Virus record (IMG/VR): IMGVR_UViG_3300032053_000007
Source of the DNA: a virus
Taxonomy: Duplodnaviria; Heunggongvirae; Uroviricota; Caudoviricetes
DNA length: 64,000 nt
Direction: 5' to 3' (one strand)
Shown: piece after piece, positions 42,181-56,526 of the stretch
Layout: each line of letters begins with the position of its first letter
Numbering within the stretch: position 1 is the stretch's first letter
Position numbers and translations under genes: made by a program
Notes under the pieces: generated by a model
What the model was told of the DNA's origin: nothing
Databases searched by the model: none
The model's input: only the letters and a program-made list of their open reading frames with translations

Positions 42181-42229
42181 CTGCTTCACGCCCCTTCACG
42201 CCGAGGCACGATGCGAACTGTTGAGCTTA

Positions 42230-42341: not shown

Positions 42342-42520
42342 AGGACTGATGGTCTTTTTAACATCGTTTCCATTGGTCGAAAAGCATTATTTGAGCCTCT
42401 TCGAACAAAAGAAGGACACTCGTTCAATATCGTTTATATATGTTCGAAATTATTGAACGATTTGCCCCGAAGAGAACGCTCAGGGGATGAAATTGAGAGT
42501 CGGGCATTATCCACAGTCCT
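42342..42520 (+). ncRNA. candidate structured RNA/repeat element, copy 1 (179 nt)
   Basis: Starts AGGACTGATGG, ends CGGGCATTATCCACAGTCCT; complementary termini; second copy at 56348-56526. Confidence 0.3.
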
Positions 42521-42629
42521 TTGGGGGACACTACTTCGGGGCACAGTTAAACTCTAGGTGTAATAAAAGTTTCGACCATGCCTTTGACCATCAACATTTA
42601 AGTCACTCAGAGTGCAACCTTTCACTTTT

Positions 42630-42645
42630 TTAAACAGTTGATTAA
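42630..42645. promoter_or_regulatory. palindromic site TTAAACAGTTGATTAA
   Basis: One mismatch; 7 nt upstream of the promoter module. Confidence 0.45.
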
Positions 42646-42651
42646 CTAAAA

Positions 42652-42690
42652 CGAGCATGGTCGTTCTGGGGAAACCTTTATAAGCTACGC
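42652..42690 (+). promoter_or_regulatory. conserved promoter module
   Basis: CGAGCATGGTCGTTCTGGGGAAACC-TTTATAAG-CTACGCTGGCATCTATA. Confidence 0.55.
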
Positions 42691-42714
42691 TGGCATCTAT
42701 AAAGGTGTGGAAAA

Positions 42715-44442
42715 ATGACAAAGCAGAAACAAGCAAAGACGAACAACTTCTCTAAGATACTTGACGAGATGAGGAATCTTGCCATAGCAATTACGAAGGA
42801 CAAACGGATTCGTATCAAGTATATTCCAGAACAACCAACTTCTGCTTTCAATATGGAAAACTTTGAGATTTCTTTGAGTTTACAGAGTTATCCCGATTTC
42901 GTGAAAACATCGCCCCGTCTATTCCGAAAAATCCTAGACGGTGACATGGTTCACGAGTGCGGTCATCTGATTCTAACAAAACCGAATTGGGAATTTTTCA
43001 ACAATTGGACAACAAAAATCAAACGACAGAGAGGATTTTACAAGCTGGCTCACGAAGTTTGCAACATAGTTGAAGATAAGCGCGTGAATCATTTCATAAT
43101 TCTCAGATACAGGTTTGATGTCGGCAAGAGGCTACTTTTGGCGAATTTGATACTAAAAGACATGATAGACAACACAATTGAAAAGCCACAAATAGCCATG
43201 TCAACCATCTTACCGAAGGGCGAAAACTTAGGCGAAAACGAAATTCCAAACATGACAATTCAAGCTGGACAACAAGACGGGGTTTACATGGTTGCAATTT
43301 TGTGCAATGAAGGTCTATATGAGGCTAAATGCACAGAGTTATGGAACAAACTAAGCCCAGATGCTAGAAAGGACTGTGAAACAGCCCTTAAAGTGCTAGA
43401 GGGGACGAAATATCAACGTGTCAAACTCGACATAATAAGGTCTTGCCAAACGATTTATGAATTGGTAGCTAAACACTTGAACGCTGACTATACGACAAAG
43501 GAATATGTCGTTTCTAGAAGAGGGGGCAACGTAAAGGGCAAAATATCGGACAGACTTAGGCAATTACTAGAAAAAGAGGAAGAGCAAGAAAAGGCAGAAG
43601 AGGACAAGAAGAAACACCTAGAAGATTTGCAGAAAGGTTCGGGTGCTGGCGAAGGCACAGGCGAAGAGATTCCAGCCCCAGACCCAGATTTTGAGGCGTA
43701 TTCGAAACTTCTGGACGAATGCAAGCCTGAAATTTCCGAGCTATTGAATCAACTAAAGAAGAAAATGAAACCGAGAGTTCAACGGGACATTTTCCAGAAA
43801 CGCGGAAAAATGATGAGTCCAATTGTTCCACGCATCTACACAAACAGCTTTAGGGGAACCGTTCGCAATGTGTATCTGCGTACAACAACAAAATTTGAGA
43901 AGGAACAAGTCGCAATTCAATTTTGGTTCGATTTCTCAGGGTCAGTTAGTCGAATAGAGGCTGAAAAGATAACCACTATACTGAATGAGGTCTTTGGACA
44001 TTACGTTGACGATTACGGGTTCAGTATTGGGTGCTTTGGGGCAGATACCCAGAAAGTAAAGACTTTCTTTGAAACCTTCGAAAACACACGGGCAAGAATT
44101 GGAGCTATTTCGGTGAATGCTGGCGGTACTGAGGTTTCCGTTGGATTAGAGGCAAGCCTGAGAATGTTCAATACGATTAAAGGCGAACGCCGAAAGATTC
44201 TGGTCATTGCGTCCGATTTCTGCTTCTGTGGTGATGAAGAAACGAAAGCAGAGGAATTAATCGACCAATATGCGAAAGCTGGAATTGAATGTATCTTCAT
44301 AGGTTTCTGTGACTGTGAGAATGTAGAAACCTTCGCAAGCAAAGTGAAAAACTTGAAGTGCTCACGAACACGGATAAACCAAATATCCGAATTACCTCAG
44401 AGATTCCTAAACGTGTATCTAAACGTAGAAACCCAGAAGTGA
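42715..44442 (+). CDS. HExxH metallopeptidase-motif / von Willebrand factor A (vWA) fusion protein (575 aa)
   Basis: N-terminal MVHECGHLIL; acidic linker; C-terminal vWA MIDAS DFSGSVS...GGTEVS...IASDF. Confidence 0.6.
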   Translation: MTKQKQAKTNNFSKILDEMRNLAIAITKDKRIRIKYIPEQPTSAFNMENFEISLSLQSYPDFVKTSPRLFRKILDGDMVHECGHLILTKPNWEFFNNWTTKIKRQRGFYKLAHEVCNIVEDKRVNHFIILRYRFDVGKRLLLANLILKDMIDNTIEKPQIAMSTILPKGENLGENEIPNMTIQAGQQDGVYMVAILCNEGLYEAKCTELWNKLSPDARKDCETALKVLEGTKYQRVKLDIIRSCQTIYELVAKHLNADYTTKEYVVSRRGGNVKGKISDRLRQLLEKEEEQEKAEEDKKKHLEDLQKGSGAGEGTGEEIPAPDPDFEAYSKLLDECKPEISELLNQLKKKMKPRVQRDIFQKRGKMMSPIVPRIYTNSFRGTVRNVYLRTTTKFEKEQVAIQFWFDFSGSVSRIEAEKITTILNEVFGHYVDDYGFSIGCFGADTQKVKTFFETFENTRARIGAISVNAGGTEVSVGLEASLRMFNTIKGERRKILVIASDFCFCGDEETKAEELIDQYAKAGIECIFIGFCDCENVETFASKVKNLKCSRTRINQISELPQRFLNVYLNVETQK

Positions 44443-44448
44443 GTAAAA

Positions 44449-44613
44449 ATGGTTTGCATAATTGACGATAAAGAATGTAGAAAATTGGCAGACGAAATTT
44501 CTAAAGACCTCTTCGAATACAATAAACACAAGATAAAGCTAACCAAAAAATTCTTGTGGACTATGCTTTATTGCGAATTGAAACGAAGTAAACTTAACAA
44601 AACTCGAATGTGA
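44449..44613 (+). CDS. small basic protein (54 aa)
   Basis: Hand-translated. Confidence 0.3.
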   Translation: MVCIIDDKECRKLADEISKDLFEYNKHKIKLTKKFLWTMLYCELKRSKLNKTRM

Positions 44614-44619
44614 TAACTT

Positions 44620-44847
44620 GTGAAATATAAAAGACATTGCACACATTGTAAGAACAATTTTTTCTGCAACGGAAAATGCAAAAGTGATAGACTTAAAAAT
44701 CCGAATGACTGTTATTGTCTTGAGTGTGTAAAAAAAGTTTCGGAAGAGTTTTCAAAGTTGTCTGGGGCAGACTCTACTTATGAATCTTTTAACGTTGTTC
44801 AATTTCATTGCCAAGAATCGGGCAGAGAAGAAGTGCAATTTACTTAA
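44620..44847 (+). CDS. Zn-ribbon protein, CxxCxxxFxC family (...EEVQFT, TAA)
   Basis: CTHCKNNFFCNGKC...CYCLEC. Confidence 0.5.
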   Translation: MKYKRHCTHCKNNFFCNGKCKSDRLKNPNDCYCLECVKKVSEEFSKLSGADSTYESFNVVQFHCQESGREEVQFT

Positions 44848-44896
44848 ACTTTTGGTGCAACCTTTGGTTCGGGCGGGAGAGGGGTTTTGAGAAATT

Positions 44897-44912
44897 TTAA
44901 TCAGTTGATTAA
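44897..44912. promoter_or_regulatory. palindromic site TTAATCAGTTGATTAA
   Basis: 8 nt upstream of the promoter module. Confidence 0.55.
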
Positions 44913-44919
44913 CTAAAAT

Positions 44920-44956
44920 GAACATGGTCTTTCTAAGCAAACATTTAAATAGGACG
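44920..44956 (+). promoter_or_regulatory. conserved promoter module (TTTAAATA)
   Basis: TGAACATGGTCTTTCTAAGCAAACA-TTTAAATA-GGACGCTGGCATCTATACT. Confidence 0.55.
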
Positions 44957-44985
44957 CTGGCATCTATACTCGTAAGGTAATAAAG

Positions 44986-45873
44986 ATGAACTCAGAATTT
45001 GAAAAGATTCATGCAAAGGTCGAATCAGCACTTGAAGGTGCTGGCATCTACGTCAAAGGCATCGAGTTCGTGGACGAACATGGCTACATTGAAAAGTCAA
45101 GAGCGATTCTTGAAATTGTCGGCAACCTTAGATTAGTCGGCGAAACGGGGACGGGCAAAACAACTCTTGTTCACAAGTTGGCTGAATTGTTAGAGGTTCC
45201 GCTTTTTGAAATTGTCTTAACACGGGACGTGACAAAGTGGGATTTGCTGGCATGTGATACTCTGAAAGCTGGAAGCACAGAAACAAGAGATGGAATCATA
45301 ATTCAATGGTTGAACAGCGAGAAAGGTCTGCTTTACATAGACGGGTTCAACTATGCAGAACCATCGATAATTTCACTTCTGGAATCATTGGCAGACTTTA
45401 GGGGAAACGTGTATATTCCAGAATACAAGAAGCAATTCACACGGACAGCACAGCACTATCTCGTTATCAGCTATAACCCCTCAGAAAAATCGGGTTACTC
45501 TGGGACATTCATCGAGAACATTGCAACCATTAGACGATTTGAAGGTCTGATAATCGAATACCTTAGCCCCCAGAAAGAACGCGAATTGGTAAAGAAGTTC
45601 TCTGGAAACTATGACTTTTCTGCGAAGTTCGTAGAAATTGCCAAAAAGACGCGAACCGAATACGAGAACGGAAAACTTAGAACGCCCCTCACGACAGGCA
45701 ACCTAATAAACTACGGCAAACTCTACAAAGCGAAGATGTCCGAAGAGGACATAATCGATATAGCAAGTTCGCTTTACACCGCAAGAGAAGAGCGCAATTT
45801 ATTTAGGTCGTTCTTCGAAGATAGCTCTGAGATAGACGTAGAAAAGTTGAAAAAGAAAGAAGAGGATACCTAA
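44986..45873 (+). CDS. MoxR-family AAA+ ATPase
   Basis: Walker A GETGTGKTTL; Walker B/sensor LLYIDGFNYAEPSIISLLESL; 295 aa. Confidence 0.65.
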   Translation: MNSEFEKIHAKVESALEGAGIYVKGIEFVDEHGYIEKSRAILEIVGNLRLVGETGTGKTTLVHKLAELLEVPLFEIVLTRDVTKWDLLACDTLKAGSTETRDGIIIQWLNSEKGLLYIDGFNYAEPSIISLLESLADFRGNVYIPEYKKQFTRTAQHYLVISYNPSEKSGYSGTFIENIATIRRFEGLIIEYLSPQKERELVKKFSGNYDFSAKFVEIAKKTRTEYENGKLRTPLTTGNLINYGKLYKAKMSEEDIIDIASSLYTAREERNLFRSFFEDSSEIDVEKLKKKEEDT

Positions 45874-46200
45874 ATGAATAGATTCTTTTGCAATAGAAAA
45901 ATTATAGTAGCGAACCCTGCTGGCGAAGAACCCCCAACACCACAACCGACACGAAAAACTTTGCAGAAACCGTTTGACCCCAAAAACCCCCCGAAAGGTA
46001 TCTGTGAAATTTGCCTAGACCCGAAACACAAAACTGCACATTGCGAAGCACACGGACGGATTCACTATATTCACAAAAAATGCCACAAAATTGCAGATGG
46101 AAAACTTCTCGAATTCATACGTCATTTCTACTGTAAAGAATTCGAAGAGTTACCAATTGAACAACGTGCAATTTGGCTATGGCTACACGATAAATGGTAA
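45874..46200 (+). CDS. Cys/His-rich Zn-binding protein (108 aa)
   Basis: TAAATG overlap with the ATPase gene; CEICLDPKHKTAHCEAHG...HKKCH. Confidence 0.5.
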   Translation: MNRFFCNRKIIVANPAGEEPPTPQPTRKTLQKPFDPKNPPKGICEICLDPKHKTAHCEAHGRIHYIHKKCHKIADGKLLEFIRHFYCKEFEELPIEQRAIWLWLHDKW

Positions 46201-46233
46201 ACCCAAAATTCCACTTTTTTGAGGAAAACCAAA

Positions 46234-46386
46234 ATGACTGATTATATTGAAGAGGCGTTAGCGCGAAGAGAAATGCAAGAATTTCTAATCGAGAGAAGAA
46301 AAGACTATCAGAAAAAATACGCTCAAACTCACAAACGAAAATCGAAACCGAAAAAGAAAGTTGAACGGGAAATTTTCCATTGGTGA
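46234..46386 (+). CDS. small basic protein (50 aa)
   Basis: Hand-translated. Confidence 0.3.
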   Translation: MTDYIEEALARREMQEFLIERRKDYQKKYAQTHKRKSKPKKKVEREIFHW

Positions 46387-46390
46387 AAAA

Positions 46391-46606
46391 ATGACATATA
46401 TCGGGCAAGACGAAGAATTAACGATAGAGCGTGGTTGTTTTAATTGCGCTCGATTCAAAAAATGTCATCTTATTGAGGGACAAAGAAGAAATGGAATTAA
46501 TTTTATGGAGATTTTGAAGGACGGTGCGGAAGATTATCGTTATGGTTGTTGTTGCACAACTTATCTAGCAGAATCCGAAGCTAGAGAACAGGTGCAATTT
46601 ACTTGA
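46391..46606 (+). CDS. Cys-rich protein (...EQVQFT); paralog of 23075
   Basis: GCFNC...GCCCTTY. Confidence 0.5.
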   Translation: MTYIGQDEELTIERGCFNCARFKKCHLIEGQRRNGINFMEILKDGAEDYRYGCCCTTYLAESEAREQVQFT

Positions 46607-46890
46607 TTCAAAATTGTCCGTCTTGCGGTTCAATTCGCTTGACTCGAAAATGTCCGTCTTGTGGTTCTATTCTGGAAGAACAAAGTGGAACACTTTTTTT
46701 CACAGATAGTTTTTCACAACACGATAGACAAAAAATAAGGGAAACTCACTTTTTGCATTATTTTTGCGAAGTTTGTCGTAAAAATGATTTGCCTTTTGAC
46801 TTTTTATTTTTCAAAGGAAAACAATTCATTTATGATAAGGGCAGATGGAACCTCTTAGCTCCTGAGAGAGAATGTGTTCAATTCACCTAA
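46603..46890 (+). CDS. Zn-ribbon protein (...CVQFT, TAA)
   Basis: CPSCGS...CPSCGS duplicated knuckle. Confidence 0.5.
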   Translation: MIQNCPSCGSIRLTRKCPSCGSILEEQSGTLFFTDSFSQHDRQKIRETHFLHYFCEVCRKNDLPFDFLFFKGKQFIYDKGRWNLLAPERECVQFT

Positions 46891-46937
46891 TTAATCAACC
46901 ATAAGACTTAAATACTTAATTAACCATCTATTAATTA

Positions 46938-47300
46938 GTGTTTCAAATGAAATGTCAAGACTGTGAAAAAGAAACAAATACAAAATCTCAAAGATGTCCT
47001 GAATGCCAAAAGATATATCACCAAAAATGGCTAGAAGAATTAAAACTCTGGGCGATTCAAAAGTTAGGCGATAAGTGTTTTCATTGCGATAAACATTTTG
47101 ATTCTTGTGTTTATGATTTTCACCATGAAGGAAACGATACATGGCTTCGTTGCAATGAACAACAAAAAAATGCGAATCGAAGAGTAAAAGAATTGGTTCG
47201 TTGGAGAAGGGCAGAGAAAATTCCAGAGGACGTTCGATTAGTCTGCGCGAATTGTCACAGAATTATTAGTCATAAATCGTTTAATCACCTGATTAAGTAA
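46938..47300 (+). CDS. HNH endonuclease
   Basis: CFHC...DFHHEGND...N...LVCANCHRII. Confidence 0.55.
   Translation: MFQMKCQDCEKETNTKSQRCPECQKIYHQKWLEELKLWAIQKLGDKCFHCDKHFDSCVYDFHHEGNDTWLRCNEQQKNANRRVKELVRWRRAEKIPEDVRLVCANCHRIISHKSFNHLIK
47281..47296. promoter_or_regulatory. palindromic site TTAATCACCTGATTAA
   Basis: Overlaps the 3' end of the HNH gene; 7 nt upstream of the promoter module. Confidence 0.5.
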
Positions 47301-47302
47301 AA

Positions 47303-47340
47303 TGAGAATGGAGATTCCTAGCAAACGTTTATATAGGACG
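47303..47340 (+). promoter_or_regulatory. conserved promoter module
   Basis: TGAGAATGGAGATTCCTAGCAAACG-TTTATATA-GGACGCTG. Confidence 0.55.
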
Positions 47341-47352
47341 CTGTATTTATAG

Positions 47353-47368
47353 TTAATCAAGTGATTAA
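47353..47368. promoter_or_regulatory. palindromic site TTAATCAAGTGATTAA between TATA and start codon
   Basis: Second site flanking the same promoter. Confidence 0.5.
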
Positions 47369-47369
47369 A

Positions 47370-48059
47370 ATGGCTGACCAAAAAACGACAAACAAACTCA
47401 TCATAGACGAAAAGGCTCTTGAATCGTTAGGACTACACGGCGAAACGATTTATACAATAGAGTATGACCTTTACAGCGAGAAATATCTGACGGACGCGGA
47501 AAAGAAAAAGTTGACAAAAGAACAACGGGACGCAAACACGCGATTCAACAAACTTGCGCGAATTTTCAGAAACGCAATTGTGTTCGCTCTGAAATTCAAG
47601 CTGGACGCTGTGAAACATCTCGAAAGCAGTTGGCTTCTGGACGGCGATAAGCTGGACTTAGCTGTTGCAGAAATTGAAGAGATAAAGGCAAAGGCAAAGA
47701 GCAAAGGATTTGAGGACATCGACAGACGCATAAAAATCATTCCGATTTTCACGACCCCAGAAGGATTCGAAAACTACAAAGACAAGAAAGCAGAGTTCAT
47801 TCTTAACTTCATAATGGAACACGTCAAGATGGCAGAGGACGGGTTAAAAGACAAACGCATGGCTCAGAGCACACTTTGGAGATGTCGAAAAGCAGTTGAG
47901 ATTTGCAATTCACACATCGAAAGCATGAAGGGACACGAGCGATATAACGAAATGTTAGACACCGTGAATATGCTGGACGAATTGAACGGGCAATGCGAAA
48001 GTTTTCTCTGTGACCAAAAGGCAGAAAAGGCAAAGAAGAACAAGAAAGAAGAGGACTGA
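47370..48059 (+). CDS. hypothetical coiled-coil protein (about 229 aa)
   Basis: Track ORF 47361-48059; ATG at 47370. Confidence 0.5.
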   Translation: MADQKTTNKLIIDEKALESLGLHGETIYTIEYDLYSEKYLTDAEKKKLTKEQRDANTRFNKLARIFRNAIVFALKFKLDAVKHLESSWLLDGDKLDLAVAEIEEIKAKAKSKGFEDIDRRIKIIPIFTTPEGFENYKDKKAEFILNFIMEHVKMAEDGLKDKRMAQSTLWRCRKAVEICNSHIESMKGHERYNEMLDTVNMLDELNGQCESFLCDQKAEKAKKNKKEED

Positions 48060-48091
48060 AAACTTAGACAAAAATTCGAGCGTGAAAGAAA

Positions 48092-48370
48092 ATGTTTCAA
48101 TTCAATATAATTTCAACCAAAGAAATAGAAGAGGACGCTAAACTGTTCTCAAACCTTAAAGTACCATGTTCTCTGTTGCTCATTAGAAAAGACGGTTTCG
48201 ACATAGAAGAACAGGAAGATATTGACCTTATATGCAACCTTCTTTCTCAATTTGAATATGAGGTTAGTACCGAGTCCACTTTTTATGTTTCGACAAAAGA
48301 CATAGGCAAAATTAAAGAAGTCTTAGTTGCCTACGGAATTGCATTAAATCCACACATTAAGGAAGATTAA
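48092..48370 (+). CDS. hypothetical acidic protein (92 aa)
   Basis: Track ORF. Confidence 0.45.
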   Translation: MFQFNIISTKEIEEDAKLFSNLKVPCSLLLIRKDGFDIEEQEDIDLICNLLSQFEYEVSTESTFYVSTKDIGKIKEVLVAYGIALNPHIKED

Positions 48371-48373
48371 AAA

Positions 48374-48490
48374 ATGAGTAAAGAACTAACGGGCTACGAA
48401 ATATTTCGTAAAATCTTTAGTGAAACTGAGGGTGGCAAAAAGTTTTCAGAACACCCGTTAGCGAAAAAAATCTTTAAGGAACGGACGTGA
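48374..48490 (+). CDS. 38-aa mini-protein
   Basis: Hand-translated; GTGA overlap. Confidence 0.25.
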   Translation: MSKELTGYEIFRKIFSETEGGKKFSEHPLAKKIFKERT

Positions 48491-48648
48491 AAACTTTGAC
48501 AAAACAACCTTCGTGGACGGATAACCGAATTTTGACACGCAACGAAGTTAGACGGGGATTAGTAGAAAATTGGCTGAACGGTTGTGAATTTTCCGAAGCG
48601 TTTCTTAATTCAGACCTTTACAAACTAGAGAACAAGAGCGTGAAATAA
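48487..48648 (+). CDS. 53-aa mini-protein (GTG start)
   Basis: Hand-translated; TAATG overlap. Confidence 0.25.
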   Translation: MKTLTKQPSWTDNRILTRNEVRRGLVENWLNGCEFSEAFLNSDLYKLENKSVK

Positions 48649-48803
48649 TGTCTAAAAAGAAATTCTTAGTTACATACGAAGGGGACGACCCCCCGACATT
48701 GCTCGACATGAAAGACTGTCTGTTATCAAACGGAATGGACGAAGGGGGCATTCTCACAGTCGTAGAGGTCAAACGGACGAAGGAAAAGGTTGCATTTACA
48801 TGA
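48648..48803 (+). CDS. 51-aa mini-protein (...EKVAFT)
   Basis: Junction motif. Confidence 0.4.
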   Translation: MSKKKFLVTYEGDDPPTLLDMKDCLLSNGMDEGGILTVVEVKRTKEKVAFT

Positions 48804-49266: not shown

Positions 49267-49284
49267 GTCACGGTGTTGTTCTAG

Positions 49285-49952: not shown

Positions 49953-50068
49953 CTGACTGTGCTATAATAGTGTTCGACAAAGATACAGGAAAACTTAGAT
50001 GTTTCATTCATACGGCAGAGTTTAATCGCTGGCTAGACAGAAGAAAAGAACGGGTGATTTTCTCGTGA
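49949..50068 (+). CDS. 39-aa mini-protein
   Basis: ATGA and GTGA overlaps. Confidence 0.35.
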   Translation: MTDCAIIVFDKDTGKLRCFIHTAEFNRWLDRRKERVIFS

Positions 50069-50259
50069 CGTTTCAAGTTGGCGATAAGGCAAAGCTAAAA
50101 TACGCTGGCTTTAGGCATTGCCCCAAAGGTTCATTTGTTAAAATTACAAGAATTATGTCAAACAGAACCATTGATATAAGATATAAAACCGAAAGGTATG
50201 TTGTATCTGATACAGATTTAATCGAATTACAACAAAAGGAGAAGGTATGTTTCACATGA
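50065..50259 (+). CDS. small protein (...EKVCFT)
   Basis: GTG start. Confidence 0.45.
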   Translation: MTFQVGDKAKLKYAGFRHCPKGSFVKITRIMSNRTIDIRYKTERYVVSDTDLIELQQKEKVCFT

Positions 50260-50462
50260 CAACAATAGACGATAACGGTTATATCGAGTACGATTATGAG
50301 GATTTGTGTACGGAATGCAAGATGCACGATAAATGTCACGAAAACAGTATTGATTATGATGAAATTGATAAATGTTGTCAAGAACTTAATTCTCAAATGA
50401 AAGCGCGAGGAACCAAACTATATAAAACCCCAGAGCCAAAAGAGAAGGTGTTATTCACATGA
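50256..50462 (+). CDS. Cys-containing acidic protein (...EKVLFT)
   Basis: ATG in ATGA overlap. Confidence 0.5.
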   Translation: MTTIDDNGYIEYDYEDLCTECKMHDKCHENSIDYDEIDKCCQELNSQMKARGTKLYKTPEPKEKVLFT

Positions 50463-50605
50463 CGGGCGTTCTCGTTATACCGTGTTCAAAATGTGGCAGA
50501 CCTCTCAATATTCCCGTTAAAAACTATGCGGATGCAAAGAAGATAGGTTCAAGAATGTGTAAGCAATGCAACAACAAAGGAAGAGAAAAGGTCTGTTTCA
50601 CATGA
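50459..50605 (+). CDS. 48-aa Zn-ribbon mini-protein (...EKVCFT)
   Basis: CSKCGR...CKQC. Confidence 0.4.
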   Translation: MTGVLVIPCSKCGRPLNIPVKNYADAKKIGSRMCKQCNNKGREKVCFT

Positions 50606-50820
50606 TTTGTTCTAAATGTGGAAACGAGTTCAAACAACGAATTAACGAGAAATTATGCTTTAATTGTATGATGTACGAGCTAGACAGGCTCAGAGAGCAA
50701 GGCGAACGCATAGACAAGTTACTTTCCGATAACCCAGAGATAATGGAACTCTTAGACAAAATGAAGGCGCGAGAGATTATTAACCGTCTAAAGGGACGGG
50801 AAACGGTGACGTTCACATGA
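50602..50820 (+). CDS. Zn-ribbon protein (...TVTFT)
   Basis: CSKCGNE...CFNC (track ORF 50566-50820). Confidence 0.5.
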   Translation: MICSKCGNEFKQRINEKLCFNCMMYELDRLREQGERIDKLLSDNPEIMELLDKMKAREIINRLKGRETVTFT

Positions 50821-50996
50821 TTTGTAAAGTTTGTGGAAAGAGATTCACTTGCAATAATATATGTGATAGTTTGCATAAATTGAGCGCGAACGTGTGTTAT
50901 TGCAAACCATGTTCAATAGAAAGAGGATTCAAAGGCAATACCCTAAATGTTTGTTATAAAAAGGCTAACGAAAAAGAACAGGTCGAGTTCACATGA
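50817..50996 (+). CDS. Zn-ribbon protein, CxxCxxxFxC family (59 aa, ...QVEFT)
   Basis: CKVCGKRFTCNNIC...CYCKPC. Confidence 0.45.
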   Translation: MICKVCGKRFTCNNICDSLHKLSANVCYCKPCSIERGFKGNTLNVCYKKANEKEQVEFT

Positions 50997-51232
50997 TAAA
51001 TTCAAACCGTAAAAAGTGTTGTATTTGCGGTAAAAAAGGTTATGCAAATTATCACGATATACAGACTGAGGAAAAACTTTATCTTTGCGACTCACATGGT
51101 ATTTTGTGGGAAAAATCACAAGAACGACATGACTTCTTTCACGATAGAAGAGATAATACTTGGGAGTCTTTTTTCAAAAAGTGGCTATTAAAACGCAAAG
51201 TAACAACAAAAGAGAAGGTCAATTTCACTTGA
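50993..51232 (+). CDS. Zn-binding protein (...EKVNFT)
   Basis: CCICGKKG...CDSHG. Confidence 0.5.
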   Translation: MINSNRKKCCICGKKGYANYHDIQTEEKLYLCDSHGILWEKSQERHDFFHDRRDNTWESFFKKWLLKRKVTTKEKVNFT

Positions 51233-51456
51233 AAGAGAAAGGTTGCTTTAACTGTTCGAACAAGAGGAATCTCGACAAGATTTATTATAAATGCACAGAG
51301 ATGCGCTCACAACCTAACTTAACTGAACCGAACGGGAAAGCTACAGGATTTTTAAGGGACGTGAAAACTCCGTTAGGTAGTCCTAGACATTCTTATCGTT
51401 TAGGTTGTTCATGTGAGTATTGGAAGAGTGAACGGGAAACGGTTGAATTTACATGA
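51229..51456 (+). CDS. Cys-containing protein (...TVEFT)
   Basis: TTG start (track ORF 51160-51456); GCFNCSN...GCSCEY. Confidence 0.45.
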   Translation: MKEKGCFNCSNKRNLDKIYYKCTEMRSQPNLTEPNGKATGFLRDVKTPLGSPRHSYRLGCSCEYWKSERETVEFT

Positions 51457-51695
51457 CAAAATTTAAAGGACGTTGTAGAAAATGCAAAAGAATAGTTAGC
51501 GGTCAATTTCCAATTAAACTATTATTGGCTGTTCTCTGCGAAAGTTGTAACGAAGAATGGAAGAGATATTTTTCAAAAAGGTTTGACAAAGAACATGGGA
51601 CGCTTTTAGGTTTTCATACGCCCATTGAAGAATGGGAAAAGGAAAAGTGGTTTAAGGATTTTCTCAACAGCAAAGAGAAGGTAGAGTTTACATGA
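51453..51695 (+). CDS. Zn-ribbon protein, CxxC...LCxxC..W..F family (...EKVEFT)
   Basis: CRKCKR...CESCNEEWKRYF. Confidence 0.55.
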   Translation: MTKFKGRCRKCKRIVSGQFPIKLLLAVLCESCNEEWKRYFSKRFDKEHGTLLGFHTPIEEWEKEKWFKDFLNSKEKVEFT

Positions 51696-51907
51696 TTCAA
51701 CTAACAAAAACCGATTATAATATTTGTATTTCATCAATAAGCTATTATAGTTGCACTAATTGTTGGAAAAACAGCCTAAAAGTTTATCGTTTGAAAGGAA
51801 AAGTACAAGAAAGAGGAAAAATTGGCATAACTTTAACGTGGCTCTGCCCTGACTGTTTCGAAAAAATCATCAAAAAGAAAGACATAGAACAGGTTCAATT
51901 TACATAA
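51692..51907 (+). CDS. Zn-ribbon protein (...EQVQFT, TAA)
   Basis: CTNCW...CPDC; last gene of array 3. Confidence 0.5.
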   Translation: MIQLTKTDYNICISSISYYSCTNCWKNSLKVYRLKGKVQERGKIGITLTWLCPDCFEKIIKKKDIEQVQFT

Positions 51908-51948
51908 ACCATAACCTTTATAAGCAACTTCTACTATTTTATCTTTAG

Positions 51949-52275
51949 ATGATTCAGATGCGATTAAAGTCTATTGGAAATTTTGACGTTGAAATAAAAG
52001 AGAAAACTGAATCACAAAAAAAGAGACAACGAGAACAAATAAAAATGTGGGGAAAAAAACACCCAGAGCGAACTAAAATGAAGAATGCAAAACGGCGAGA
52101 ATTAGGGTTTGACCCTTTTAATGGGAGATTTATTGGCTCTGTTGCTCATCATATAGATTTTGAATGTGTTATCTATATTCCCAGAGAACTTCATATTTCT
52201 ATTCATCATTGCGTTTGGACAGGTCAGGGTATGGCAGAAATAAATGATAAAGTTTTCGAATGGCTTACCACATAA
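51949..52275 (+). CDS. possible HNH-like nuclease (low confidence)
   Basis: AHHIDFEC...N...HISIHHC. Confidence 0.3.
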   Translation: MIQMRLKSIGNFDVEIKEKTESQKKRQREQIKMWGKKHPERTKMKNAKRRELGFDPFNGRFIGSVAHHIDFECVIYIPRELHISIHHCVWTGQGMAEINDKVFEWLTT

Positions 52276-52305
52276 ACGTGGCGACAAGTGGTTTTTAGCG
52301 AATTT

Positions 52306-52321
52306 TTAATCAGTTGATTAA
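52306..52321. promoter_or_regulatory. palindromic site TTAATCAGTTGATTAA
   Basis: Immediately upstream of the promoter module. Confidence 0.55.
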
Positions 52322-52322
52322 C

Positions 52323-52360
52323 TCGAACATGGACGTTCTAGGCGAAACTTTATATAGCGC
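52323..52360 (+). promoter_or_regulatory. conserved promoter module
   Basis: GAACATGGACGTTCTAGGCGAAAC-TTTATATA-GCGCGCTGTACT. Confidence 0.55.
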
Positions 52361-52369
52361 GCTGTACTG

Positions 52370-52385
52370 ATTAATCAGTTGATTA
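52370..52385. promoter_or_regulatory. palindromic site TTAATCAGTTGATTAA between TATA and start codon
   Basis: Same dual-operator layout as at 47.3 kb. Confidence 0.55.
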
Positions 52386-52398
52386 ATTGGTGAACGCG

Positions 52399-52782
52399 AT
52401 GAACACGGAGAAAATTTACTTCGATAACGCTGAACTCGATGGAACAGCTTTGGCTTCTGGGACTATTTCAAGATATGATACTAAAATTACCAAAGTTATC
52501 TATTCCATTGACGGTATAATCGCTGATGATATTGGTGCTGAGTTGTTCGTTCACGAATTCAATGAAGTTGCAATTTATGAAGTATTGAATCGAATTCTTC
52601 CATACGAAAGTTTATCAGCTATTTCTCACAACTTGAACGCTGAAAGCGATAACGAGTATGTAGAAGAGAGAAACCTTTTACATGGTTATGTAAAGAGCGA
52701 TAGACTTCCAGCTATTGACAAAGTTTTCACACAACAAGAAACAGACGAGTTTAGGGCAAGAGCAAACAAACCTAGACGATAA
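52399..52782 (+). CDS. hypothetical protein (about 127 aa)
   Basis: Track ORF 52387-52782. Confidence 0.45.
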   Translation: MNTEKIYFDNAELDGTALASGTISRYDTKITKVIYSIDGIIADDIGAELFVHEFNEVAIYEVLNRILPYESLSAISHNLNAESDNEYVEERNLLHGYVKSDRLPAIDKVFTQQETDEFRARANKPRR

Positions 52783-52784
52783 AC

Positions 52785-52820
52785 GAGCATGGACTTTTTC
52801 CCGAAACATTTATATACTTG
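52785..52820 (+). promoter_or_regulatory. conserved promoter module with no ORF downstream
   Basis: CGAGCATGGACTTTTTCCCGAAACA-TTTATATA. Confidence 0.5.
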
Positions 52821-52839
52821 ATTGACATCTGTAATAACA

Positions 52840-53090
52840 TGACGCACTCGCGTCTAACTAAAGGGCGCGTAAGACCGAAGGACGCACAACGTCCAAAAAC
52901 TTACCGACCCTTCAAAGTCGCTAGGGTTACGTTCGAAATAAGCGACAAGAACGGAACCGCACAAGACCGAAGGTTTGTCTCGCGGTAAAACGGGGCATTC
53001 CACCAACTTGTGCTTCAACTGACAAAAAAACCACAAACCACGTCCGAAAACGGGGCATGGCACACTCTCCATGCCCCCTCTCTCCTTTTT
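52840..53090 (+). ncRNA. candidate ncRNA A (GC-rich, ORF-poor, promoter-to-terminator unit)
   Basis: Internal repeats AAGACCGAAGG ×2 and AAAACGGGGCAT ×2; ends in a 9-bp hairpin plus T-tract. Confidence 0.35.
53052..53090 (+). terminator. intrinsic-terminator-like hairpin GGGGCATGG-N8-CCATGCCCC followed by a T-rich tract
   Basis: Perfect 9-bp stem, then CTCTCTCCTTTTT. Confidence 0.5.
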
Positions 53091-53128
53091 AAGTATGGTC
53101 TTTCTATGACAAGGTTTATATAGGACGC
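53091..53128 (+). promoter_or_regulatory. conserved promoter module (second ncRNA unit)
   Basis: AGTATGGTCTTTCTATGACAAGG-TTTATATA-GGACGCAGACATATTACT. Confidence 0.5.
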
Positions 53129-53149
53129 AGACATATTACTTTTGGGTTC

Positions 53150-53265
53150 GTGCGGAACACTCTCAGATAGTCGGCGAGTTAATGAGCCATGAAAAACCGC
53201 TAGGGTATGGGAGTTAGGCGTGGGTAATGGCACTCACGGTGTATCAGCCACACGAACTCACTAAT
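53150..53265 (+). ncRNA. candidate short ncRNA B
   Basis: Promoter followed by a GC-rich ORF-free segment ending at the next promoter module. Confidence 0.25.
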
Positions 53266-53300
53266 TGAATATGGTCTTTCTTAGCGAAAGTTTATATAGT
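53266..53300 (+). promoter_or_regulatory. conserved promoter module (third unit)
   Basis: TTGAATATGGTCTTTCTTAGCGAAAG-TTTATATA. Confidence 0.5.
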
Positions 53301-53324
53301 TGGGTGTGTATTATACTCTTCCGC

Positions 53325-53440
53325 ACGTTGAAAAATCCTTATGCGGTGCGATACGACATAGGGCAAATTTCAACCTCTACATTAAATAAAACTAGGGTCA
53401 CGGCGAAACGCACTAGCCAAGACCCCCCTAAAATTTTGAG
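53325..53440 (+). ncRNA. candidate short ncRNA C
   Basis: As for unit B; contains GGTCACGGCGAAACGCACTAGCC. Confidence 0.25.
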
Positions 53441-53475
53441 CACGTTCTTTCTTAGCAAACCTTTATATAGGACGG
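53436..53475 (+). promoter_or_regulatory. conserved promoter module
   Basis: TTTTGAGCACGTTCTTTCTTAGCAAACC-TTTATATA-GGACG. Confidence 0.5.
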
Positions 53476-53503
53476 CGAACACTACATCTCAAAGGTTGAA
53501 ACT

Positions 53504-53893
53504 ATGAAATTGCAAGAACTTAGGGAAAAGTTGACATCGAAGGACGTTAAACCCTCAGAGTCATGGCTAGAAAATCAATATCCAGCACAACCATCTGAAC
53601 GATACTCTAAGCTAACATATTTGAACCTAGCGAACATTGAGGACAATTTCGGCAAAGAGGCAAAAGAACAACTAGAAAAATATCTTCTAAAGAACCCAGA
53701 AAAACGTGTCGTTGTTCTCGCGGAACTCACAGAGAAGGGCAATGTCAAAAAGCGACCCAGAATCTTCGTAGATTCAGGTGTTGGTTATGACAACTTTGCG
53801 TCATACTACGGAATCTATGAGCTATTCGCGTGTTCCGTTCACATGCACGGATTCATTGAAGTTTTCCAGAATATCAAAGACGGACAACAATAG
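53504..53893 (+). CDS. hypothetical protein (129 aa)
   Basis: Track ORF. Confidence 0.5.
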   Translation: MKLQELREKLTSKDVKPSESWLENQYPAQPSERYSKLTYLNLANIEDNFGKEAKEQLEKYLLKNPEKRVVVLAELTEKGNVKKRPRIFVDSGVGYDNFASYYGIYELFACSVHMHGFIEVFQNIKDGQQ

Positions 53894-53904
53894 GTGACTG
53901 AGCA

Positions 53905-54252
53905 ATGAAGAACTTCCTAACATCAAAAGACAAATTCCCACCCGTCCATTGCAATGTTTTCCAAGACTATGACAGATTAGACGCGCTGGCAAAGAAACGG
54001 GGCTACCACGCTATTGAACTAGGAAATGACGACAAAATTACGACCCGTTCAGGCACAGGGCTTCAAAATGAACACCTTCATTCTGGATGGATAACAACTA
54101 TGGGTGAATCTGGAACAGACCCGAAAGCAATGACCGAATTGCTGAAAGACAAGATAAAAGAGTGCGAAACGCGCGGAGAAACCGTTATTATTGGCTTCTG
54201 CCAAACGGGATGGTTCTCAGTCGGATATACGCTTTACTTGAAGGACGCTTAA
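53905..54252 (+). CDS. hypothetical protein (115 aa)
   Basis: Track ORF. Confidence 0.5.
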   Translation: MKNFLTSKDKFPPVHCNVFQDYDRLDALAKKRGYHAIELGNDDKITTRSGTGLQNEHLHSGWITTMGESGTDPKAMTELLKDKIKECETRGETVIIGFCQTGWFSVGYTLYLKDA

Positions 54253-54255
54253 GCC

Positions 54256-54435
54256 ATGATGGACAAAGAGTTTAAGGTCAAAATAACCCCTAAACAAGCT
54301 CGATACGTCATAAAGCTCTTGAAAGATGCCGTAAAGACGAAAAGACGCAAAAAACAGCAAAACATCGACAGCATTGAAATACTCGTCACGGACATCGACA
54401 TTCAGGTATCAACCGAGAACACACGATTTCTCTAA
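54256..54435 (+). CDS. small basic protein (59 aa)
   Basis: Hand-translated. Confidence 0.3.
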   Translation: MMDKEFKVKITPKQARYVIKLLKDAVKTKRRKKQQNIDSIEILVTDIDIQVSTENTRFL

Positions 54436-54449
54436 CCTTCTCTTTTTTT

Positions 54450-54485
54450 GTGCATGGACGTTCTACCACAATCTTTATATAGCTG
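54450..54485 (+). promoter_or_regulatory. conserved promoter module
   Basis: TGCATGGACGTTCTACCACAATC-TTTATATA. Confidence 0.5.
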
Positions 54486-54608
54486 TTTGATTATTGTATT
54501 ACTCGTATGAGCACGGGAACAAGGTTTCCAAACTACGTCCTTAGCTGACGAGTGATGGACGCTTATTGGAGAATCGTCCGTGTTCCGCGCTAATCTAAGT
54601 GGTCTAAA

Positions 54609-54746
54609 ATGATAACACTAAAAACCGTGATTAAGAAAGTAAAAGAGAACGCTGGCATAATCATGGCATTTGCCCCGATAGCCTTTTTCGTAGTTGTAAT
54701 AGCTCTAATACTTTCTGGAATACTCAAAGTTCACATTGAATTTTGA
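54609..54746 (+). CDS. small membrane protein (45 aa)
   Basis: Hydrophobic core; stop inside the TGAGCATGG module. Confidence 0.35.
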   Translation: MITLKTVIKKVKENAGIIMAFAPIAFFVVVIALILSGILKVHIEF

Positions 54747-54780
54747 GCATGGACGTTCTTAGGAAACCTTTATATAGCTC
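54744..54780 (+). promoter_or_regulatory. conserved promoter module
   Basis: TGAGCATGGACGTTCTTAGGAAACC-TTTATATA. Confidence 0.5.
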
Positions 54781-54800
54781 GGTGTTGTTGTTATTATCAA

Positions 54801-55028
54801 GTGAACAAGATGGTCAAGCAAAAAATAGGATTCTTTAAGTGGCTCTACACAAGAACCATCGAAGTCATACGTGACCCTCTAACCCAAAGTATAGGGGCAA
54901 TTCTGGGTGGAATTTTCATTTTCGCTTTTTCTGCTACTTTTGGTGCGCTATTCTCGCCTCTTCTATTTTTGGGTGTCCCTGTTGGAATATTGGTACTACT
55001 CTACGGAGTCTATAAAGTCGAACACTAG
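54801..55028 (+). CDS. small membrane protein (75 aa)
   Basis: Two TM helices. Confidence 0.5.
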   Translation: MNKMVKQKIGFFKWLYTRTIEVIRDPLTQSIGAILGGIFIFAFSATFGALFSPLLFLGVPVGILVLLYGVYKVEH

Positions 55029-55031
55029 ATT

Positions 55032-55068
55032 CGAGCATGGTCTTTCTACCACAACCTTTATATACCCG
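55032..55068 (+). promoter_or_regulatory. conserved promoter module opening an ORF-free island
   Basis: CGAGCATGGTCTTTCTACCACAACC-TTTATATA. Confidence 0.45.
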
Positions 55069-55336
55069 TTTGACATACTACTCTATCAAGGGCGAAGGGA
55101 TATTGTTCCATTTTTTCACCGTCCTTTCTCGCGCTTTCCCTTCGCCCGTTCTACTCATTCCTTCTAACCTCTCTAACCCTCTACAAACTTAGACGATTTC
55201 ACTAACACTTTTTGTTAAAGACCTCAGAACCCCCGACCCAGAGAGCCTTTACACTTTTTGATTTCACCACGTCAACCGAAACTGACCCAAGTTCTGCCCA
55301 AGCCGTCTTGAGCCTCTCTCACGAAACCCAGATTTT

Positions 55337-55352
55337 TAATCAACTGATTAAC
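55337..55352. promoter_or_regulatory. palindromic site TTAATCAACTGATTAA
   Basis: Perfect inverted repeat. Confidence 0.5.
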
Positions 55353-55672
55353 GAATCGTAGCTCGTAACGAGGCTGTGCACCCTTTACCCCGACCTCTAA
55401 CCATATAACACAAATTGTTAAGCAAATTCCCGAACCCCAGAGAACCCACGTCCGACCCCTAACCCAGACCCTCTAACGACCTCTAATCACTAACCCCCCC
55501 AAGAGAGCCATATACCCCCAAAAGTGGAGTCCATGCTTAAAAGAAATGCTCGATAAAAGATACTGATGACCTTTACATACGTAAAGGAAAGGGTTGTCAT
55601 ACGTAAAGGGTCTATGGAGTGGAATGTTGGCATACGACAACGGCGTGATTGACATAGTGCTGTAGCTCTATT

Positions 55673-55688
55673 TTAAACAGGTGATTAA
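55673..55688. promoter_or_regulatory. palindromic site TTAAACAGGTGATTAA
   Basis: One mismatch. Confidence 0.4.
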
Positions 55689-55813
55689 CGACCCCATTAT
55701 AAAGAAGTCCCCCCCCTCTAGCTCCCCTGAATGCCAAAACAAGCCTAGAAAAAAGACGTTTTGGCAAACGGTGACTTTATTATCCGAAAGGCTCGCGGAA
55801 CTGTGGAGAATTT

Positions 55814-55829
55814 TTAATCAGGTGATTAA
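55814..55829. promoter_or_regulatory. palindromic site TTAATCAGGTGATTAA
   Basis: Perfect inverted repeat. Confidence 0.5.
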
Positions 55830-56347
55830 GCAGGGCGAACCGACAGGTAGAAGGGACGGCGTGAACTCTCTGACCAGAAAATAATTGGAACCAAAAAAAC
55901 GCCTATGTGCGCTTATGTGATATTCTCAGTTGCATTCTATGGACAATTTCCTGTTAACCGAGGCGTTACCCCAAAAGTTGCACTTTTTGTTACACTAGAA
56001 GTTGTGCTAGACCAAAACGTTTATATACCCCCTATTTAAGCGTATCGCCGATAGCCTTATATAGTAGCTATTTAAACCTATCGGTTGCTTATATATGTGC
56101 AAACTTAGCAAAATTCGAACCATAAAGTACAACTCTCTATTATCACGTCCTTCGAACCATATACCGCAACTCTTATATAGATGCCATACTTACTTATAAA
56201 CGTTTGCCCAGAACGACCATGCTCGATTTAGAGGCTGATTCAGGGCGGAAACAACTAACGGAGCACACTTACAGATTCGAACTCGCGCCGATGACTAGCT
56301 CTGAGACTGATTAACTAAAACGAACGTCATCGAACGGTGAATTCATT

Positions 56348-56526
56348 AGGACTGATGACAATTTTGACGTTCTAACATTACCCCGAACTCCACGATTTAG
56401 CCTTATTCGACTAAACGGGGCGTACTCGCTCAATATCGTTGAGCAAATATAAAGGGAATTGAGCGTATTGCTCCGAACGACCCGCTCACAGGTTGATTTT
56501 AGAAAACGGGCATTATCCACAGTCCT
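56348..56526 (+). ncRNA. candidate structured RNA/repeat element, copy 2 (179 nt)
   Basis: AGGACTGATGA...CTCGCTCAATATCGTT...CGGGCATTATCCACAGTCCT; same length and termini as 42342-42520. Confidence 0.3.

Follow-up and report, generated by a model that had tools for sequence, protein, structure and literature searches.

T1, a conserved non-coding cassette and putative cis-regulatory platform upstream of HExxH genes in a probably archaeal virus-like genome

Control regions of plasmids and phages include arrays of short direct repeats, such as iterons and the centromere or operator heptads bound by ParR or omega-type proteins, and invertons are invertible promoter switches flanked by inverted repeats. 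Reused or "putative mobile" promoter regions have been described as well (Matus-Garcia et al., Nucleic Acids Res 2012, PMC3488235). For uncultured archaeal viruses and plasmids, regulation is almost unknown. Here, we describe a repeated non-coding cassette, T1, in a 64-kb stretch of DNA (the window, by which we mean the whole stretch analysed) from an uncultured virus-like genome that is probably archaeal. The control system of this genome is unusually easy to read: there are about 30 promoters that are nearly identical, 23 palindromes that resemble operators, and two or more families of conserved upstream cassettes that can be swapped. The constraint on T1 is as tight as that on a gene, yet T1 neither encodes a protein nor forms a conserved RNA fold, and it is tied to one class of genes, those for small HExxH proteins; at present, T1 stands as a well-defined and conserved non-coding element, with a putative function, in one narrow lineage.

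A preliminary description had reported two 179-nt look-alikes at 42342-42520 (copy A) and 56348-56526 (copy B), and both are present at exactly these coordinates. Their pairwise alignment spans 179 columns with 0 gaps and 112/179 identical positions, compared to 48.2 ± 6.2 identities (maximum 73) in 20,000 random ungapped 179-nt pairs drawn from the window. The 3′ 20-mer CGGGCATTATCCACAGTCCT is matched only in copies A and B, even when 3 mismatches are allowed (expected 0), exact matches to TAGGACTGATG are confined to the same two copies, and the 5′ AGGACTG is indeed the reverse complement of the 3′ CAGTCCT. While the 179-nt repeat is real, this length was too narrow as the full extent of the element. 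Gap-free homology between the two copies runs from about 42251/56257 to 42520/56526, i.e., about 90 nt further upstream than the 179-nt core, and in B- and C-type copies it continues about 25 nt more upstream and about 33 nt more downstream than the A/B stretch. The 179-nt copies are the cores of a longer non-coding cassette of about 300–330 bp, which we call T1. The full unit of copy A covers 42251..42553 on the plus strand (gap-free homology to copy B from 42251; E=8e-78 with nhmmer against the family model) and that of copy B 56235..56559 on the same strand (nhmmer E=2e-89; B/C flank conservation). Copy B shares its 5′ block CTGATTCAGGGCGGAAACAACT and its 3′ block, which ends in GCGCGAACGGGCTTCGAAC, with the B and C copies of relatives, and one related contig, L080, carries a copy identical to copy B. 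The placement of a repeated non-coding family within ORF-free islands was borne out; the overlapping ORF at 42285-42557, which had been assigned to the minus strand, lies on the plus strand.

Nine further distinct T1 copies were found in related metagenome contigs, which makes 11 distinct sequences, including the two of the window, among 15 matches in total (nhmmer E 1e-58 to 1e-93). All copies sit in three homologous slots (A, B, and C), and all 15 matches have a single core orientation relative to the conserved flanks, which is plus relative to the downstream gene. Slot A is occupied by T1 in the window and in L017, by an alternative family, T2, in L003 and L004, and by nothing in L056, while the slot-C cassette is T2 in the window and in L059 but T1 in L058, L060, and L064. 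In the window, T2 lies at 58617..58774 (plus strand; TTCGATTCAYCAC sites both direct and inverted; nhmmer E=1e-45), with a long variant in slot C at 59585..59825 (plus strand; nhmmer comparison of the T2 family). Among relatives with downstream proteins that are 83–90% identical, one and the same slot may contain T1, T2, or no cassette; the homologous region stands before different genes and is exchanged independently of the gene, as is characteristic of a reused upstream regulatory region. The islands are mosaics of promoter pieces, and assemblies frequently break within them; from coordinate arithmetic, one 86-kb contig ends inside copy B.

An HExxH protein, with the motif at residues 71–80, is the product of the gene that follows T1 in 10 of the 11 copies. 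In the window, the product of the slot-A gene (42715..44442, plus strand, 575 aa) has HECGH at residue 80 and, at its C terminus, a VWA/MIDAS domain (PF00092 in homologues); a gene for a MoxR-type AAA_5 ATPase follows (44986-45873). HELGH at residue 74 is found in the product of the slot-B gene (56784..57287, plus strand, 167 aa) and HELIH, also at residue 74, in that of the slot-C gene (60025..60498, plus strand, 157 aa), which has a T2 cassette upstream in the window.

T1 is surrounded by promoter-like sites. A leftward site (GAGCATGG box and TTTATAAG; 42056..42123, minus strand; promoter HMM 36.8 bits, E=9e-11) lies directly left of copy A and faces a 43-aa ORF at 41900-42031, and another lies directly left of copy B (56181..56243, minus strand; 45.0 bits, E=2e-13). 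These are the only two strong minus-strand promoters that the promoter HMM detects in the 64 kb, and a leftward promoter likewise adjoins T1 in L058, L064, and L065. To the right, the gene after copy A has a promoter-like site at 42631..42696 (plus strand; 47.9 bits) preceded by a palindrome at 42630-42645, and the gene after copy B has a late-type TATA region (AACGTTTATAAG...TAAGGACGTG; 56742..56766, plus strand; a member of repeat family D11) that gives a partial, non-significant HMM match (E=0.1). In every related locus, T1 is found between a leftward TATA and one or more rightward TATA boxes, the latter starting 35–75 nt past the T1 end. Within T1, the promoter HMM has no match, and a BRE/TATA position weight matrix from 31 sites of this genome (training minimum 13.5 bits) detects no site of the genome's own type at a conserved T1 position on either strand, the best reaching at most 7 bits. 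A T5 run that could act as a terminator was not found after T1. Two palindromes (TTAATCANNTGATTAA; 42165-42180 and 42231-42246, together 42165..42246) lie between the leftward promoter and copy A. Across the window, this palindrome is matched 30 times (10 expected), and 23 of these matches have no more than one mismatch. Palindromic sites had been said to adjoin both copies, which holds for copy A (42165, 42231, and 42630) but not for copy B, where the nearest is about 500 nt off at 55814.

Sequence comparisons indicate that T1 is under purifying selection. Nucleotide identity between orthologues is 0.65–0.88 in T1 versus 0.60–0.89 in the adjacent gene, with 0–2 versus 9–36 gap columns, and copy A and its L017 orthologue are 82–90% identical inside T1 versus 40–70% in the flanks. 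Most copies have stops in every frame, and mismatches by phase (107/109/90, p=0.34) show no 3-periodicity. In the 11-copy alignment, the conserved part consists of short primary-sequence blocks at constant spacing that are mostly CGA-centred, with the CGA cores as invariant columns. The same-strand series at fixed spacing comprises 7–8 YCGAAC/TTCGA boxes, TCG-T-N3-TATCG, AGGACTGAT, and CAGTCCT, and T1 also holds two or three half-copies of the operator-like palindrome of the genome (CTGATT...AAAACG). Copy B has seven CGAAC boxes (plus strand; 56278, 56321, 56331, 56384, 56474, 56544, and 56555, spanning 56278..56559), and those of copy A lie at 42315, 42321, and 42402, with the variant TTCGAAG at 42271 (plus strand). 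Between 56001 and 57000, CGAAC occurs 12 times on the plus strand and 0 times on the minus strand, where the window averages 0.66 per 500 nt, an approximately 9-fold enrichment around copy B on one strand only.

From these features, we tentatively read T1 as a putative DNA-level cis-regulatory platform for protein binding, a reading to which we give slightly less than even confidence. We infer that one or more DNA-binding proteins with sequence specificity would recognize the boxes and dock on T1, that the bound proteins would regulate transcription from the flanking divergent promoters, and that strains would exchange T1 for T2 by recombination in the repeat-rich islands. Several observations count against this: the box spacings (43, 10, 53, 24, 66, 73, and 10 nt) have no regular helical phase, the 7-bp inverted repeat is perfectly conserved yet has no specific role in such a platform, and T1 segments resemble the operator/promoter module, but not to a statistically significant degree. 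The one-strand motif bias would equally fit a ligand at the RNA level and likewise weighs against a DNA platform.

T1 could instead act as a largely unstructured RNA that is made by read-through or starts at a non-canonical promoter, e.g., as a sponge that captures an RNA-binding protein through its 7–8 CGAAC boxes or as a long RNA that regulates the HExxH genes, which would fit the position of all boxes on one strand, the fixed orientation relative to the downstream gene, and the strong constraint without coding capacity. A minus-strand TATA at 56654-56679 also points into copy B, both in the window and in L065, but since this module lies on the other side of T1 in L059 and L060, it is not a constant partner of T1. 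Since neither strand has a canonical promoter at a conserved position, the slot-A T1 is hemmed in by T-run/palindrome sites, and the promoters of the downstream genes are located after T1, which places T1 outside the leaders of those genes, we regard an unstructured RNA as unlikely, although it deserves some weight. Quite unlikely is the idea that T1 and T2 are interchangeable regulatory cassettes swapped by strains of an archaeal virus before a family of small HExxH (metalloprotease-like) genes, with T1 perhaps an unstructured sponge (RNA or decoy DNA) that would titrate a nucleic-acid-binding protein of the virus by means of its 7–8 CGAAC boxes, all on one strand; if true, this would be a kind of regulatory element that is not known to have been described for archaeal viruses. 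The structured non-coding RNA of the preliminary description, closed by an AGGACUG/CAGUCCU stem and including C/D-box-like RNAs, is largely refuted, and we consider it barely credible. Every copy has the 7-bp complement, for which 97% of cells are paired, the single sequences fold slightly better than shuffled ones (z = -2.1 and -2.4), and one compensatory change distinguishes an internal hairpin (CTCGYTCAAT/ATTGARCG) of copies A and B. However, the covariation check on 11 copies reveals no conserved fold: the SCI is 0.09 on the plus and 0.14 on the minus strand, and the RNAalifold consensus has 13 pairs (-7.8 kcal/mol; covariation term +0.18), none of which shows a compensatory change. The internal hairpin is kept in six copies and lost in five, the terminal stem is broken three times without compensation and never shows a double change, and no compensatory change was found among the 11 copies in the terminal stem or the third helix pairs. 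In the structure derived from copies A and B, 2/23 pairs have a double change, both in the helix missing from five copies, and double changes are no better than in shuffles (253/500 shuffles do as well). The C-box-like UGAUGA is present only in copy B of the window (1/11; UGAUGG, UGAUGU, UAAUGU, or UGAUAU elsewhere), a CUGA D box was not found near the T1 3′ end in the 11 copies, and the window has no Rfam match at the gathering score, the two T1 regions giving only chance-level matches (E of 2 or more, with E up to 10 allowed); a box C/D sRNA is not supported.

Other readings take T1 as a different kind of DNA element. Direct-repeat boxes in an ORF-free setting with divergent promoters, a cumulative GC skew that flattens at about 52–56 kb near copy B, and nearby AT-rich arrays of TATA-like boxes might suggest a replication origin or a centromere-like partition site, to which an initiator or a partition protein would bind through the repeated boxes. 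This is improbable, as there are two to three copies per genome, close relatives (L056) lack the element, no AT-rich unwinding stretch exists inside T1, and its boxes are 5–6 bp long and irregularly spaced rather than phased repeats of at least 10 bp beside a rep or par gene; adjacent initiator or par genes are absent, and the scan of neighbouring proteins gave no rep or par domain. T1 might also have no function of its own and be a relic of duplicated operator/promoter modules that travel with HExxH paralogues, given that its segments resemble a half-palindrome plus AAAACGAGC module, that TGATTAACTAAAACG is identical at 42639 and 56308, and that the islands are of mosaic composition. Such a relic is hard to reconcile with a sequence that is conserved like coding sequence while the neighbouring non-coding DNA decays, is nearly indel-free over about 300 nt, and is still about 60% identical between copies whose downstream proteins have diverged past BLAST detection, and we hold it to be similarly improbable. 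Finally, T1 could be a recombination substrate or mobile unit, i.e., an invertible AGGACTG/CAGTCCT segment, a recombinase target, or the miniature inverted-repeat element (MITE) proposed earlier. The inverted repeat is conserved and assembly breaks are common in the islands, as in the contig ending in copy B, and because cassettes are swapped between strains, a recombination site keeps a small share of our confidence. Overall, we judge this family of explanations very unlikely: the inverted repeat is just 7 bp, homology runs past both supposed termini (by about 90–115 nt on the upstream side, beyond AGGACTG, and by about 33 nt on the downstream side, beyond CAGTCCT), no target-site duplication or duplicated flanks were found at the T1 copies, no inverted copy was seen among the 15 assembled matches, the scanned neighbouring genes included no recombinase or transposase, and the copies are found only in the three homologous slots. 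The same extended homology, missing target-site duplication, single orientation, and homologous slots speak against the MITE.

If protein binding were confirmed, the DNA platform would offer a concrete cis-element and gene set to study the timing and switching of viral expression, and a handle on strain diversity through recombination between regulatory modules. Among known systems, T1 is like archaeal box C/D sRNAs in that copy B begins with the terminal complement followed by UGAUGA, but it differs in the rarity of this box, the lack of a D box and of an Rfam match, and a threefold excess in length. MITEs are likewise short repeated non-coding elements with inverted ends, whereas the 7-mers of T1 are internal to a longer unit that has one orientation, three syntenic slots, and no target-site duplication. 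A segment of about 170 bp between inverted repeats upstream of a gene recalls invertons, although the repeat of T1 is only 7 bp and there is no internal promoter, nearby invertase, or inverted copy found. As in iteron, ParR, and omega arrays, a short motif is repeated in one orientation beside promoters with conserved spacing, but here the boxes are 5–6 bp and irregular, no par or rep gene is nearby, and the setting is that of archaeal TATA/BRE promoters. In contrast to the mobile promoters (PMC3488235), T1 has no recognizable promoter of the genome's own type and sits upstream of the actual promoters, and its downstream genes share HExxH and so may be distant paralogues rather than unrelated; like them, it is a homologous non-coding region before different genes in one genome that is exchanged between relatives independently of the gene.

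The two 179-nt stretches at 42342-42520 and 56348-56526 (copies A and B) are present as the preliminary description had them, and their pairwise alignment has 112 identities over 179 columns with 0 gaps. Since 20,000 ungapped 179-nt pairs drawn at random from the window gave only 48.2 ± 6.2 identities (maximum 73) and the 3′ 20-mer occurs in the window at these two sites alone, even with three mismatches allowed, the similarity is far above chance and is not confined to short accidental matches. The 179-nt limits first drawn are not the limits of homology, as A and B are gap-free and collinear from about 42251 and 56257, and the wider family shows conservation for another ~25 nt upstream (CTGATTyAGGGCGGAAaCA) and ~33 nt beyond CAGTCCT, up to a terminal GGTTCGAAC. 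This ~300–330-bp cassette, here called T1, is real and cleanly delimited.

Homologues of the 575-aa gene downstream of copy A and of the 167-aa gene downstream of copy B were traced into contigs, which gave 11 distinct copies of T1 in three homologous gene-upstream positions: slot A precedes the 575-aa gene (in the window and in related metagenome locus L017), slot B precedes the 167-aa gene (in the window, L058, L059, L060, L064, and L065), and slot C precedes the homologue of gene 60025-60498 (in L058, L060, and L064). For 10 of the 11 copies the downstream protein carries an HExxH motif at residues 71–80; otherwise the three downstream proteins have no detectable mutual similarity, and their annotation with Pfam and PHROGs yielded nothing above threshold. 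The window contains six ORFs with this zincin-like motif in a hydrophobic context (9171-9596, 14786-15229, 20077-20385, 42715-44442, 56784-57287, and 60025-60498), mostly encoding small proteins of 100–170 aa, with a sub-threshold SprT-like hit of 9171-9596 as the sole Pfam match among them. Homologues of the 42715-44442 protein (HExxH-VWA), namely P0005, P0020, and P0059, are ~900 aa long and contain intein/LAGLIDADG domains (PF14890, PF14528) that are missing from the window copy. A partial T1, consisting of the 3′ third only (TTGCyyCGAAC...GGTTGA...AAAAC.GGC), is also found elsewhere in relatives (L009 7838-7926, L064 4265-4338, and L022 909-947), which suggests that sub-modules may recombine.

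T1 is as conserved as coding sequence. At orthologous slot-B loci its identity is 0.65–0.88 versus 0.60–0.89 for the adjacent gene, with 0–2 gap columns versus 9–36, and between the window and L017 it is 82–90% identical, whereas the non-coding DNA directly downstream falls to ~40% with indels. T1 is nevertheless non-coding: no open frame is common to the copies, and the three codon phases have similar numbers of mismatches (107/109/90, p=0.34). The invariant columns in the alignment of all 11 copies form short blocks at fixed spacing, i.e., ATTCGAAC-T-GC..CG.TG.C, CTGATT....AAACGAA, TCGAAC, AGGACTGAT, CCGAAC, TTCGAC.AAAC, TCG.T...TATCG, CG...T...CCGAAC, and CAGTCCT, together with ACGrAC...TTCGAAC in most copies only. 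Among these blocks are seven to eight boxes of the YCGAAC/TTCGA type, which share a single strand, and within 1 kb around copy B CGAAC occurs 12 times on the plus strand and 0 times on the minus strand (1.3 expected). The motif TGATT-N-AAACG has four matches against 1.7 expected, which is not significant, and three of the four lie in T1. The CGAAC boxes were also considered as regularly phased iterons and rejected as such on their irregular spacing.

The promoter-like module of this genome, TTGAGCATGG-N17-18-TTTATAWAGGACG, has an archaeal-type BRE/TATA look and occurs at ~29 near-identical sites (for instance 947-1000, 42631-42696, and 54722-54787), 27 of 29 on the plus strand and all before about 55.1 kb. 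Genes from 56.7 kb on have another upstream type, TATATAAACGTTTGCTTT...CTACAC...AACGTTTATAAG...TAAGGACGTG-ATG, and the split near 55–56.7 kb suggests that the two types may mark two temporal classes. A perfect 16-bp palindrome, TTAATCANNTGATTAA, lies at 23 sites (including 5097-5112, 33389-33404, 52306-52321, and 58831-58846), with 30 matches in the window against 10 expected, usually with a T-run before it and a promoter box 7–25 nt after it; it is abundant in the distant relative L077 as well (13 copies) and could be an operator or terminator. In two or three segments T1 looks like the palindrome's right half plus AAAACGAGC, the beginning of the standard promoter, a resemblance that is not statistically significant, and TGATTAACTAAAACG is identical at 56308 and in the promoter of the slot-A gene. 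The pattern GTNNNNTTYA[CG]WTGA marks 69 gene junctions on the plus strand between 6007 and 51695 (such as 16819-16841, 40553-40575, and 50448-50470), with two on the minus strand and ~0 in shuffles. Small ORFs of 48–128 codons on the 5′ side share the tail E-[K/V/R]-V-x-F-T-stop, the junction TGA overlaps the following start codon (ATGA or TTGA), and an SD-like GAGAAGGTG stands 9–10 nt ahead of that start. These junctions are either a translational-coupling signal on dozens of genes or the mark of a very large small-protein family with a conserved C-terminus.

Strong minus-strand promoters number just two in the window, 42123-42056 and 56243-56181, and a T1 copy sits just to the right of each. 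In every related locus a leftward BRE/TATA is found 20–130 nt left of T1, and the downstream gene has its TATA box(es) starting 35–75 nt past the T1 end, or further where a module is inserted, as at window copy B; T1 is thus what separates two divergent promoters. The islands around it are mosaics: in the window and L065 the module ATGTAATATACGC...TATATAAACGTTTGCTTT lies to the right of T1, in L059 and L060 to the left. The ORF-free islands 55030-56780 and 59330-60020 have a high density of TATA-like boxes on either strand, with a minus-strand promoter-like site near 55510-55545 and a tandem repeat, ATACCGAAAC(G/C)(T/C)TTATATACTACC, at 59447-59497; the cumulative GC skew flattens from about 52–54 kb. 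L080, 99.3% identical to the window, has a 1.9-kb insertion (L080 4543-6407 versus window 58863-59058) that holds a minus-strand 160-aa gene and is bounded by a ~195-nt direct repeat of the late-promoter region; it shows recombination between duplicated regulatory modules. Many independent assemblies end 200–400 nt past gene 53905-54252 or at the repeated promoter 55033-55082 (breaks about 54450-55082), and the end of the 86-kb contig k141_72449, as calculated from coordinates, falls within copy B, at about 56406; such ends within the islands suggest population-level polymorphism.

The slots can also hold an alternative cassette. In slot A of L003 and L004, where the downstream protein is 88% and 83% identical, a ~160-nt cassette (T2) takes the place of T1, and in L056 (85%) the slot has no cassette. 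Copies of T2 lie at 58617-58774 and 59585-59825 (slot C) in the window and at L003 3756-3913, L004 1525-1682, and L060 2808-2965. T2 centres on three TTCGATTCAYCAC sites, one of them inverted and the others direct, and also has tandem (G)CATGGTCTTT boxes; the C/T variant positions in its arms do not covary, and the arms look like candidate protein-binding sites rather than an RNA stem. T1 appears, on these comparisons of loci, to be exchangeable with T2 by recombination.

The window sequence comes from metagenome contigs of 86–152 kb and has a G+C content of 37–40%, almost all genes on the plus strand, mostly small ORFs without known families, and no tRNA or tmRNA genes. Megablast and tblastn searches against GenBank phages and PLSDB plasmids gave no match. 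Since an “uncultured archaeon” MAG holds one relative of the gene adjoining copy A, three IMG/VR viral contigs are distant relatives, and likeness to GenBank phages or PLSDB plasmids is lacking, we infer that the genome is an uncultured, probably archaeal, virus-like element. The only IMG/VR relatives, found by protein (downstream protein 42–51% identical), have neither T1 nor T2, and exact-pattern searches of IMG/VR with T1 motifs, three in all, returned 0 matches.

The best fit, which we hold tentatively and at somewhat less than even confidence, is that T1 is a DNA-level cis-regulatory platform, an array of putative sites for one or more sequence-specific proteins that would act on the flanking promoters of the HExxH genes, exchangeable with T2 by recombination. 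This reading is preferred because T1 combines an indel-intolerant constraint on primary sequence with no coding, no conserved fold, no canonical promoter of its own, and a fixed place between divergent promoters. The structured non-coding RNA proposed in the preliminary description is now highly improbable. From A and B only, a terminal stem, an internal hairpin with one compensatory change, and a third helix can be drawn, but with 11 sequences RNAalifold gives 13 invariant pairs (−7.8 kcal/mol, covariation term +0.18) and no compensatory change; the structure conservation index, 0.09 for the plus and 0.14 for the minus strand, is ~0 in every 120-nt sub-window. The hairpin is intact in only six of the 11 copies, and the third helix is 71% paired with 0 double changes. 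The AGGACTG/CAGTCCT stem does stand as complementarity (97% paired), its only variation being three uncompensated breaks, and by a rough estimate two complementary 7-mers would arise by chance among ~100 conserved positions with a probability of order 0.3. The C-box-like UGAUGA occurs in one copy only and a D box is absent; Rfam gave no usable match, whether for the whole window at gathering score or for either island at E up to 10. A hammerhead (CUGAUGA) and a k-turn, checked by hand against the pairing, were also rejected: the terminal complement contains the CUG, and the A9 position of a hammerhead core is G in copy A.

An unstructured protein-binding RNA, which would agree with one-stranded boxes, is unlikely, and would have to be made by read-through or from a non-canonical promoter: a PWM of 31 of the genome's own BRE/TATA sites reaches ≤7 bits inside T1 on either strand (training minimum 13.5, median 20), and as far as can be read from its sequence T1 is not an autonomous transcription unit. 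A decayed standard promoter was set aside, an HMM of 29 promoters not scoring inside T1 (best E=68). That T1 is a non-functional relic of duplicated promoter modules, as the mosaic islands might allow, is improbable and contradicted by its conservation. We think it equally improbable that the box array is an origin or partition site. Very little probability attaches to a site of recombination or inversion, or to a MITE. A MITE is contradicted by the inverted 7-mers, which lie within the conserved unit, by the lack of a target-site duplication, and by the uniform orientation of all copies, each of them in a syntenic slot.

Read as a cis-regulatory platform, T1 would be an intergenic regulatory module, repeated and conserved, whose lineage has no characterised relatives, and a putative regulatory module is not a surprising thing for it to be. 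It fails the defining tests of a C/D-box RNA, a MITE, an Rfam-type structured RNA, and an iteron origin. Its closest counterparts in behaviour are reused upstream regions termed “putative mobile promoters” (PMC3488235), from which it differs in having no internal promoter, and it loosely resembles the multi-box operator/centromere arrays of plasmids and phages.
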